Shown piece after piece: positions 2,220-33,603 of a stretch of DNA of 64,000 nt. The position numbers and the translations under genes are program-made. Each line of letters opens with the position of its first letter. Positions within the stretch are counted from its first letter, which is position 1. Where the stretch lies: assembly GCF_013122565.1 (NCBI RefSeq), contig NZ_CP053258.1; one strand, 5' to 3'. The notes beneath the pieces were generated by a model, which worked only from the letters and a program-made list of their open reading frames with translations, did not search any database and was not told the origin of the DNA. The stretch is from Escherichia coli. Lineage in GTDB: Bacteria; Pseudomonadota; Gammaproteobacteria; Enterobacterales; Enterobacteriaceae.

Positions 2220-3542
<1,323 letters not shown>

Positions 3543-3556
3543 TCTCATCACTTATG

Positions 3557-3588
3557 CCCGCACTCCCTTCCCCGAGTGCGGGTGTTTG
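3557..3588 (+). terminator. Putative intrinsic terminator of dctA
   Basis: GC stem cccgcactc / gagtgcggg with 8-nt loop followed by tgtttg, 15 nt after the dctA stop. Confidence 0.5.
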
Positions 3589-3762
3589 CGCATAATTGAC
3601 CCCTGTGCCTGAACTTACCACCTGGGTGAGTTCAGGTTTATTTCACTTCTTCCGTGACATTTTCATGTTCTTGCGGTCTAACACGAAGTGTTTTTAACGT
3701 CATTTAGACTGACCGACAACGGGCAGTTTTTTTATTACCAGGATAGTTGATCAGGGGTTCAC

Positions 3763-30781: not shown

Positions 30782-31939
30782 TTATTGTTTCGATTCGGTG
30801 CTGGCGTTTTCCTGGCCGGAGGAAATTGCTCGTGCTTTGATACCCGGACGAATGCGTTGCAAACCGGAAACGATCACCCGATCGCCAGCCTGCAAGCCAG
30901 AGGTGACGACCCACTGGTCGCCGATGGCTTTGCTGGCTTCAATTTCGCGTAGCTGCACGACATCGTCTTTATCCAGAATGAGCGCCGTTGCTTTACCCTG
31001 GGCGTTGTGGGTGACGCCTTCCTGCGGCACCAGTAATACATTCTGGCGGCTACCTTCATCCACTAATGCCGTGACATACATGCCAGGCAGCAAGTCACCA
31101 TTTGGGTTGGGGAAAATCGCCCGTAACGTCACGGAGCCCGTGGTTTCATCCACCGTCGGGTCGGAGAATTTCAACGTGCCGGTCTGGCTGTAACGTTTAC
31201 CATTTTCCAGATTGAGCTGTACTGGCGTACTGCCCTGAATCTGTTTGATTTGCCCATTGGCGACCTCTTCTTTCATACGCAAGAAATCCTGCACCGACTG
31301 CGTGAGATCGACATAAATCGGGTCCAGACGTTGTATGGTAACCAGCGAATCTGCCTGATTAGCGGTAACGAGTGCGCCAACGGTCACCGACGATTTCCCG
31401 CTGACGCCCGTAATCGGCGAGGTGACATTCGCGTATTGCAGATTGATCGTCGCCTGTTCAACAGCCGCTTTGGCGACGGTGACATTGGCTTCTGCTTCAT
31501 TCAGCTGGGTGCGCGCGGTGTCGTAATCCTGACGGCTAACGTAGTTGGTCTTCAGCAACGATGCCTGGCGGTTAAAGGTGATGCGGGCATTGCTGGCGGT
31601 AGAGAGCGCTTTCGCCAGCGAGCCTTTGGCGGAGTTTAGCTCGGCCTGTAAAGGTGCAGGGTCAATCTGGTACAGCGAATCGCCCTGGTTCACTTTATCG
31701 CCTTCGATAAAGTTGCGTTTAATGATAATACCACCCACCTGGGGACGTATCTCGGCAACTTCATAAGGAACGGTTCTACCGGGCAATTCGCTCAACACAT
31801 TGACCGAACCGGGGGAGAGTGTGACGACACCGACCTCAGGCGTCATGGCGGCGGCGTTTTCCGCCGATTTGTCATCGCAGGCGGTGAGCATCGCGCCGCA
31901 GAATAACAACGGTATTAACAGCTTTCTTCTTCTGTTCAT
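30782..31939 (-). CDS. mdtE: RND efflux membrane fusion (periplasmic adaptor) protein MdtE
   Basis: 385-aa ORF with lipoprotein signal (LLFCGAMLTAC); AcrA-like; 24 nt upstream of mdtF. Confidence 0.95.
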   Translation of the reverse strand: MNRRRKLLIPLLFCGAMLTACDDKSAENAAAMTPEVGVVTLSPGSVNVLSELPGRTVPYEVAEIRPQVGGIIIKRNFIEGDKVNQGDSLYQIDPAPLQAELNSAKGSLAKALSTASNARITFNRQASLLKTNYVSRQDYDTARTQLNEAEANVTVAKAAVEQATINLQYANVTSPITGVSGKSSVTVGALVTANQADSLVTIQRLDPIYVDLTQSVQDFLRMKEEVANGQIKQIQGSTPVQLNLENGKRYSQTGTLKFSDPTVDETTGSVTLRAIFPNPNGDLLPGMYVTALVDEGSRQNVLLVPQEGVTHNAQGKATALILDKDDVVQLREIEASKAIGDQWVVTSGLQAGDRVIVSGLQRIRPGIKARAISSGQENASTESKQ

Positions 31940-32277
31940 TTTAGTCCCTGAAAATTCTTGAGAAATAACGGTTCTTTAAATTGCGCGCGAGGAGAGATAT
32001 GAGGGATTTACAGACCAGCGGCATAGTGGGGTTGTCAGCCAGTAAGGTGGGATACAGGCACAGTGATCGACATGGTGAGGTCAACGACAAAAAAAATGTT
32101 GCCGTTCTGCCAACAGTTCCTGCCAGCATTCGGGCAACGAAGGGTTCTACTGGTGGATACACATACCAGGGGAATAAAGTCGTTTTAGCCTCTCCTTTAG
32201 TAATCACCGGGGGTAATGAAATCAGCATCTGCATCCCTCGTCATGCCAGCCATCAATTTCAGTTGCTTATGTCCTGA

Positions 32278-32805
32278 CTAAAAATAAGATGTGATACCCA
32301 GGGTGACGATGTCGCTCATACGTCTTAGTTTCAGCTTGTACATAATGTTGAATTTCTGAATCTTTAATGTTTGTTGCGAAATATTGAGCGTCGACGTGAT
32401 ATTGCTTTCATTTTTATTTTTCAGAATCAGTTGCATAATTTTGAACTGATTATGTGAAAAACATAATTCTGAATTCTTATGGGGCAAGTGTTTACCATAA
32501 GTAATCTCAAGAAGATTTTTGATACTTTCTTTGCGGCTGACAAAATAAATAGGCGCTTTAGCTTTTAGTTTACTGATGTGATAAGGTGCCAAAACAATAA
32601 TTCTCTCGGCATCTAATTTCTCCAGAAATTTAATCGCTTCTTCATCAAGGATATGATTGTGATAGGTATCAATGATAACCTTGAAGGGTTTATTGCCTAC
32701 TTTTTTGATCTCTGACAGGGAATTGATTTTTATCATTTCGTGATTATCTTTCAACTGCCAAAAGCCCTGTAAAAGAAAAGAATCTTTCGTCATGAGAAAA
32801 ATCAT
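32278..32805 (-). CDS. gadE: LuxR-family acid-resistance master regulator GadE
   Basis: 175 aa from MIFLMTKDSFLLQGFWQL; track ORF has a 26-codon N-terminal extension. Confidence 0.9.
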   Translation of the reverse strand: MIFLMTKDSFLLQGFWQLKDNHEMIKINSLSEIKKVGNKPFKVIIDTYHNHILDEEAIKFLEKLDAERIIVLAPYHISKLKAKAPIYFVSRKESIKNLLEITYGKHLPHKNSELCFSHNQFKIMQLILKNKNESNITSTLNISQQTLKIQKFNIMYKLKLRRMSDIVTLGITSYF

Positions 32806-33603
32806 AACTTGCTCCTTAGCCGTTATCGTTTCGAACATGTCATCCTTTTCATTATTTACATCCTTGTCCGAATCGTTGTTCAATATAGTAAACGCCTATA
32901 AGAACTTTGCCCTTCGTGAACTAATACGTCTATTAACACTAATCAATACTTCAGATTTATCCATCACGCACTCCATATATTGATCCTAAGTAAAATTCCT
33001 GGTTGTTATCAATTTGTAAACAGTGAACAAAAAGTTAACGTTTGCGGATTACTGCCCAAGAATAAGTTATCAATAACCAGTTTGTGATCTCTGAAGAATA
33101 TTACTAAAGTTAAAATGTAATCCGATTTAAATATCGAGTCTCCTTGTTTCGACTTAAGCTGGCAATTGGATTGCCAGCTTTCTTTTAACGCATTGAAATT
33201 ACCTGAGTAAATAACGCATTCATGTCTTCAGGTTTTTATATAGCGTCTGGAGACACGGATATTTATGCAATGTAATCAACGCCAGTTGCAATAAAATGAA
33301 CCCGGATTACTTATTTAACCGCCCATATCATCAACGCTTACGGAACTCTTTGTTCACTTTCCCACAGCACTTTTAAAACATTAAACCTGACTACGGAAAA
33401 TATCAGCCATGATAATGTTTGAAATGGCTAATTTGCCATGGAATGAAAAAATTTAGATTAAATTCAGTAGGTTGAAATAATCACCAGCAGGTGATTATTT
33501 CAATGATAGTGCGAAAATGATCTGCAACGCTGTGAAGCGGAGAGAGTATTAATTAGATCATAGTCACATCAAGTGACTATGATCCAGATGACAACCGGGA
33601 TAA

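Follow-up and report, generated by a model that had tools for sequence, protein, structure and literature searches.

The closest described counterparts of the element reported here are the Rho-dependent transcripts of Dar and Sorek (2018; PMC6061677), whose precise steady-state 3' ends lie directly after stable stem-loops. These stem-loops have neither U-rich tails nor upstream A-tracts, the sequence that follows them is enriched in C over G, and the ends themselves are produced by PNPase and RNase II, which trim the RNA back from diffuse termination sites farther downstream. REP elements, which often act as 3' protective structures (PMC6061677), likewise fold in the mRNA and block 3'-to-5' exonucleases. 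Intrinsic terminators provide a third comparison, and one of these, the terminator of the antisense RNA ArrS, lies close to the element studied here. We compared these systems with a perfect palindrome in a 64,000-nt stretch of Escherichia coli DNA (the window). The palindrome probably serves the hdeD mRNA as a protective stem-loop and marker of its 3' end, upstream of a probable Rho-dependent termination zone; we favor this reading because the features of the locus match those of the Dar and Sorek class. The hdeD stem-loop is stable, lacks a U-rich tail and an upstream A-tract, and in K-12 has a steady-state 3' end directly downstream of it, followed by an excess of C over G and by a bicyclomycin-sensitive region. 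It differs from the class in its unusually perfect stem, and in that its Rho dependence and trimming are features that we infer.

The window covers the Escherichia acid fitness island, in the orientation opposite to that of K-12. The list of open reading frames places mdtE (30782-31939) and gadE (32278-32805) on the minus strand, and hdeA and hdeB on the plus strand. The hdeD coding sequence, a 190-aa ORF recognized through RefSeq annotation of orthologous loci, occupies 33604-34176 on the minus strand (stop codon, 33604-33606, included) and is separated from gadE by an intergenic region of 798 bp (32806-33603). At the distal edge of this region, positions 33556-33584 hold a perfect 12-bp inverted repeat, gatcatagtcac-atcaa-gtgactatgatc, with arms (33556-33567 and 33573-33584) that are 100% complementary and a 5-nt loop (33568-33572). 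Read on the minus strand, it starts 19 nt past the hdeD stop codon; the transcript that carries it is that of hdeD, and it forms a stem-loop in the hdeD 3' UTR. Two GATC sites, at 33556-33559 and 33581-33584, lie 25 bp apart within it. The first-pass annotation had described the palindrome in similar terms, and the sequence agreed with its facts throughout, including the position, the two Dam sites and the lack of a U-tract. Its occurrence is far beyond chance. When perfect hairpins with arms of 12 bp or longer and loops of 3-10 nt were counted, the 64 kb contained three distinct ones, against 0.09 expected from 100 Markov-1 shuffles. With the minimum lowered to 10 bp there were nine, of which three fall in the hdeD-gadE spacer.

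In the hdeD-sense RNA, the stem is longer than the core repeat, with 14 pairs (33554-33586, minus strand) and no bulge. The two pairs added beyond the 12-bp core are G.U and U-A in the window and G-C and C-G in K-12, the outer one covarying between U-A and C-G (alignment columns 4/36). The predicted folding energy of the 14-pair stem was -21.4 kcal/mol in the window (z = -6.7) and -25.0 kcal/mol in K-12 (z = -7.6), and the stem-loops of the Escherichia and Kluyvera sequences ranged from -19 to -25 kcal/mol (z of -4.5 to -7.6). An Rfam 15 scan of positions 32000-35500, at E values up to 1, gave no match at the hairpin. The sole real hit in that scan was a match to the ES205 sRNA at 32089-32160 on the minus strand (105 bits, above the gathering score), just downstream of gadE, where the K-12 annotation has the 3'-UTR sRNA GadF.

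A stable stem at the end of a gene could also be a weak or non-canonical Rho-independent terminator, from which hdeD transcripts would be released at or just after the hairpin despite a poor U-tract. Weak intrinsic termination is the main rival to our reading, and we consider it unlikely. In its favor are the stability of the stem, its G+C content of about 40%, an RNA 3' end in K-12 only 4 nt after the stem (see below), and an A/U-rich tail (UAAUUAAU in the window, AUUAAUAC in K-12). Against it, the tail itself is poor in the expected residues. The hdeD-sense sequence after the stem (UAAUUAAUACUCUCU; as RNA in the window, UAAUUAAUACUCUCUCC) has 4 U in its first 8 nt, and so no U-tract; the K-12 tail has 3 U in the same interval, and that of E. 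albertii (GCGUCAUACUCC) is poorer still. The U-tract of about 7-9 nt that defines an intrinsic terminator was therefore absent from the window and K-12 tails and from that of E. albertii (GCGUCAUA). There was no A-tract upstream of the hairpin, and a consensus terminator scan did not call it, though the same scan called the nearby arrS terminator. The earlier proposal that the palindrome, lacking a U-tract, is not a simple intrinsic terminator was well founded on both the U count and the scan.

The arrS terminator shows what an intrinsic terminator in this region looks like. It lies 370 bp from the hdeD hairpin, at 33156-33186 on the plus strand, as indicated by the K-12 annotation, Term-seq and the terminator scan, and the ArrS antisense sRNA stretch in the window is 33117-33186 (plus strand). 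Its hairpin (33156-33180) is the third perfect palindrome of the spacer, with 11-bp arms followed by TCTTTT. Like it, the hdeD hairpin is located near the end of a transcription unit, and in both cases a precisely placed RNA 3' end follows the stem. Unlike the hdeD hairpin, the arrS terminator has the TCTTTT tail, and its very strong Term-seq 3' ends (K-12 positions 3657984/5; PMC7815308) drew 171,112 to 982,952 reads, compared with 1150 at hdeD.

The palindrome corresponds in K-12 to NC_000913.3 3657587-3657615, on the hdeD-sense strand, where published transcript data could be consulted; all of these data come from K-12 and not from the window strain. Adams et al. 2021 (eLife 10:e62438, PMC7815308) list, in sheet M63 0.4 of Supplementary file 1, a Term-seq 3' end at 3657621 (+), with flanking sequence CCCCGGTTGTCACCCGGATCATAGTCACTTGATGTGACTATGATCCGATT[A]ATACTCTCTC. 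This end falls just downstream of the 14-pair stem, 4 nt from its base. Collinear alignment, together with the equal 798-bp intergenic length, places its equivalent in the window at 33550 on the minus strand. The end is modest (mean of 1150 reads) and appears in the M63 glucose sheet only, being absent from the two LB sheets. Its 'orphan' label comes from distance alone: 54 nt separate it from the hdeD stop codon, beyond the 50-nt cut-off of the 'primary' class. No opposite-strand 3' ends are listed near the palindrome in the same tables. The supplementary tables of Term-seq terminators from TERMITe hold no entry under hdeD or at this coordinate, a weak negative that also counts slightly against intrinsic termination. 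Term-seq had been suggested at the outset as a way to check the palindrome, and the published K-12 end supplies the positive result. We consider it very likely that the hairpin is the structure that defines the end of the hdeD transcript.

Directly 3' of the stem, alignments revealed a conserved block, TTAATACTCTCT (33541-33552, minus strand), that contains the position of the 3' end. It was invariant in all sampled E. coli, with a related TAAYACTCC in other Escherichia, and the invariant tail, ACUCUCUCC, consists of consecutive YC dinucleotides. This block may mark where Rho begins to load, or else help to set the point at which trimming ends.

A Rho-dependent signal has also been published for the region downstream. 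In the DirectRNA-seq experiment with and without bicyclomycin (Supplementary file 2; PMC7815308), a Rho termination region was assigned to 3657733 (+), with a score of 6.83 and a significance of 2e-20. This coordinate is 112 nt downstream of the 3' end at 3657621, maps to 33438 (minus strand) in the window, and lies upstream of the most distant gadE start site, T3 (at -566; PMC3708157). Reads upstream and downstream of it numbered 101 and 28 without the drug, and 251 and 475 with bicyclomycin (PMC7815308). The Rho score compares 800-nt windows, the downstream one of which contains all gadE promoters, and the rise in downstream reads could reflect gadE induction instead of the hdeD read-through that we infer; our literature search on hdeD and bicyclomycin found no report. 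A bicyclomycin-sensitive region just downstream is a further argument against intrinsic termination at the hairpin.

The base composition of the spacer is consistent with Rho loading in the same interval. From 33552 to 33397 (hdeD sense), C/G ratios in 78-nt windows were 1.6-2.1, the highest of the hdeD-gadE span, and fell to 0.36-0.5 just beyond. In all 11 of the Escherichia-type sequences compared, the ratio in the 100 nt after the hairpin was 1.6-3.5. We designate this C-rich, G-poor untranslated stretch (33397-33552, minus strand) a putative rut region.

These features suggest how the hdeD transcript may be completed. RNA polymerase leaving hdeD would transcribe the hairpin and enter the untranslated C-rich, G-poor stretch; Rho would load there and stop transcription within about 100-200 nt, short of P3, the most distant of the gadE promoters. 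The resulting ragged ends would be trimmed by 3'-to-5' exonucleases to the base of the hairpin, which would block their further progress, leaving a short overhang and stabilizing the hdeD mRNA. As a side effect, the gadE control region would be insulated from hdeD-driven transcription. We lean towards this specific route of Rho termination plus trimming. In being extragenic and downstream of a gene, the palindrome resembles the REP stabilizers of mRNA 3' ends; unlike them, it is single-copy and has no REP consensus.

The hairpin and its CU-rich tail might, alternatively, constitute a conditional terminator that sets the level of hdeD read-through into the 798-nt gadE control region. Without bicyclomycin, downstream reads were about one quarter of those upstream, which is compatible with such a role, though we regard it as improbable. 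Such a terminator could be tuned by Rho activity, by hdeD translation, or by a protein that binds the RNA at the stem. Since the hdeD promoter is activated by GadE, regulated read-through would amount to a hidden positive-feedback input to gadE, one that would also interact with the antisense ArrS region.

We assessed conservation within E. coli and beyond it. Among eight sampled E. coli haplotypes, none of the 24 arm positions varied, whereas 31 of the remaining 120 intergenic columns did (Fisher p = 0.002); in the loop, 3 of 5 columns were variable. A 39-nt query around the palindrome found the site in 5412 of 5426 complete E. coli genomes, always at a single locus and with no plasmid among the matches; the two BLAST 'places' reported per genome are the two strands of one palindrome. 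Conservation across strains, which the first-pass annotation had proposed as a check, is evident both in the invariant arms and in the near-universal single locus. The surroundings behave differently. A 211-bp query around the site matched 5410 of the 5426 genomes at only 87-95% identity, whereas the adjacent mdtEF genes are ~99% identical among E. coli. Selection on the stem is unusually strict for a spacer that is otherwise hypervariable.

The polymorphism of this spacer deserves a comment of its own. We describe the hdeD-proximal part (33430-33640 in the window) as unusually polymorphic because of the contrast between 87-95% identity here and ~99% in mdtEF, and several deep haplotypes seem to coexist. 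The haplotype of the window was absent from the complete genomes, its best match being 95.3% identical. One strain, E. coli ES11 (NZ_CM184321.1, locus 1-900), carries an IS5 insertion in the hdeD-gadE spacer just beyond a second palindrome described below; the hdeD hairpin is intact in this strain, and gadE was not seen within the stretch examined. An 8.6-kb contig labeled Flavobacterium paronense (NZ_JAUFQN010000010.1) carries a K-12-like hdeD-gadE region with homopolymer-type indels; the contig almost certainly stems from E. coli DNA contaminating the assembly.

To extend the comparison, we scanned a genome collection with HdeD, which yielded E. albertii, E. whittamii, Escherichia sp. E1V33, MOD1-EC7003 and Kluyvera cryocrescens, as well as two divergent genomes labeled E. 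coli. The hairpin was kept at the orthologous place in all Escherichia found. Across these, a 15-pair helix had 91.3% of its alignment cells paired. In E. albertii, E. whittamii, E1V33 and E69, the GATC..GATC of the arms is CCTC..GAGG, with pairing kept, and the next pair outward alternates between U-A and C-G from lineage to lineage. Two-sided changes affected three well-paired positions, with a weak fourth at the outermost pair; those at columns 6/34 and 7/33 are probably one evolutionary event. The covariation score was 0.221, compared with 0.098 in shuffles (none of 500 reached 0.221) and 0.009-0.077 when the partners were slid. When RNAalifold was applied to about 190 aligned columns from the hdeD stop codon onward in 10 Escherichia sequences, the hairpin was the sole consensus structure. 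Because CCTC..GAGG replaces GATC..GATC without loss of pairing, the conserved property is evidently base pairing and not the Dam sites.

Covariation alone does not identify the strand that folds, and we looked for asymmetric pairs that might. The G.U pairs of E69 and the window are valid on the sense RNA only; in E. albertii, E. whittamii and E1V33, the sense strand shows an A.C, which the antisense strand would read as G.U. We set this approach aside, as its signals were mixed and gave no decision.

Kluyvera cryocrescens provided a more distant comparison. Here hdeD and a gadE-like gene (positions 2501-3654 of the Kluyvera locus for the pair) are convergent and separated by a gap of 56 bp, which contains an unrelated 11-pair hairpin without a U-tract. 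A gap this short leaves no space for a gadE control region, and no promoter is expected in it; the setting is that of a 3' end. The gadE-like gene encodes a LuxR-family protein with 43% identity, and the unrelated hairpin, too, is followed by GTACTCC. In Escherichia, by comparison, hdeD and gadE are co-directional with a spacer of ~720-800 bp, and the long gadE control region may be Escherichia-specific.

Symmetric co-changes are also expected of a palindromic protein-binding site, and the palindrome could be a DNA site for a dimeric regulator acting on the gadE far-upstream region or on hdeD. The perfect symmetry, the invariant arms around an unconstrained center and the matching changes between species would suit a dimer. 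In the gadE region, phosphorylated ArcA shifts a 'P3' promoter fragment that may or may not include the palindrome, and H-NS covers the area (PMC3708157). We nevertheless find a DNA site quite improbable, for several reasons. The GadE, GadW and GadX sites mapped by ChIP-exo (Seo et al. 2015, PMC4918353), at 3655735-70, 3655819-43 and 3656193-227 in U00096.2 coordinates, lie ~100-600 bp further towards gadE, the first two of them around T3. The palindrome, which is 3655610-38 in the same coordinates (offset 1977), has no site in the ChIP-exo tables for these three regulators; it is ~185-213 bp upstream of T3 and is itself part of the hdeD transcript. In Kluyvera, where the two genes converge, the corresponding position next to hdeD is taken by a different hairpin. 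The G.U pairs tolerated in E69 and the window fit RNA and not a DNA half-site. We found no footprint at the palindrome described in the literature, and papers on the YdeO regulon, ArcA and gadE, EPOD chromatin occupancy and HdeD heterogeneity held nothing specific to it. A possible CRP site noted by eye within an arm (TGTGA-N6-TC..) was discarded, as it has only one good half-site. The first-pass annotation had left the choice between a protein-binding site and an RNA-processing element: the latter is close to the best-supported reading, and binding by gadE regulators, which it had proposed to look for in footprinting data, did not hold up for the three regulators mapped by ChIP-exo.

The two GATC sites, invariant in E. 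coli and 25 bp apart, might suggest a Dam-methylation or SeqA-dependent switch, a highly improbable role given that GATC is itself palindromic, so that one in an arm automatically gives two, and that four Escherichia lineages (E. albertii, E. whittamii, E1V33 and E69) have CCTC..GAGG in their place; our search of the literature on GATC, Dam and hdeD returned nothing relevant, and any importance of the two sites is unsupported. The acid fitness island is a lineage-specific insertion, and REP elements can protect 3' ends, as noted above, both of which would accommodate a dispersed repeat copy (REP/BIME or MITE end) or an insertion relic without a function of its own; we give such an origin hardly any credence, in view of the single locus in each of 5412 genomes with none on a plasmid, the lack of an Rfam match, the compensatory change, and arms that are more constrained than their flanks.

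The spacer contains one further palindrome. At 33472-33503, 53 nt from the hdeD hairpin and short of the gadE P3 promoter, lies TTGAAATAATCACC-AGCA-GGTGATTATTTCAA, with 14-bp arms that are perfect in the window haplotype only and have 1-3 mismatches in most E. coli. Its left arm, ATCATTGAAATAA, is conserved across Escherichia. Some 35 nt beyond the palindrome, following a T-run, comes the position equivalent to the published Rho termination coordinate. We considered this palindrome as a conserved RNA structure and rejected it, as it was absent from the consensus fold and imperfect in most strains.

Elements of this kind are well known, and the 3' end of hdeD was already in a published table, but it was unassigned and undiscussed. 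RefSeq annotation of the orthologous loci carries no feature for the hairpin, and we found no description of it in the literature. The palindrome is real and under clear selection but ordinary, most likely not a new regulatory site, and the understanding of acid-resistance regulation is unchanged. The gain is mainly one of annotation: an 'orphan' Term-seq 3' end can be assigned to hdeD, and the hdeD 3' UTR is defined as 54 nt. For promoter fusions, caution is warranted, as those that contain the full 798-bp spacer include, at its distal edge, both an element of the transcript end and a probable Rho terminator. The same edge marks where the 'sensory integration region' of gadE is probably shielded from upstream transcription.
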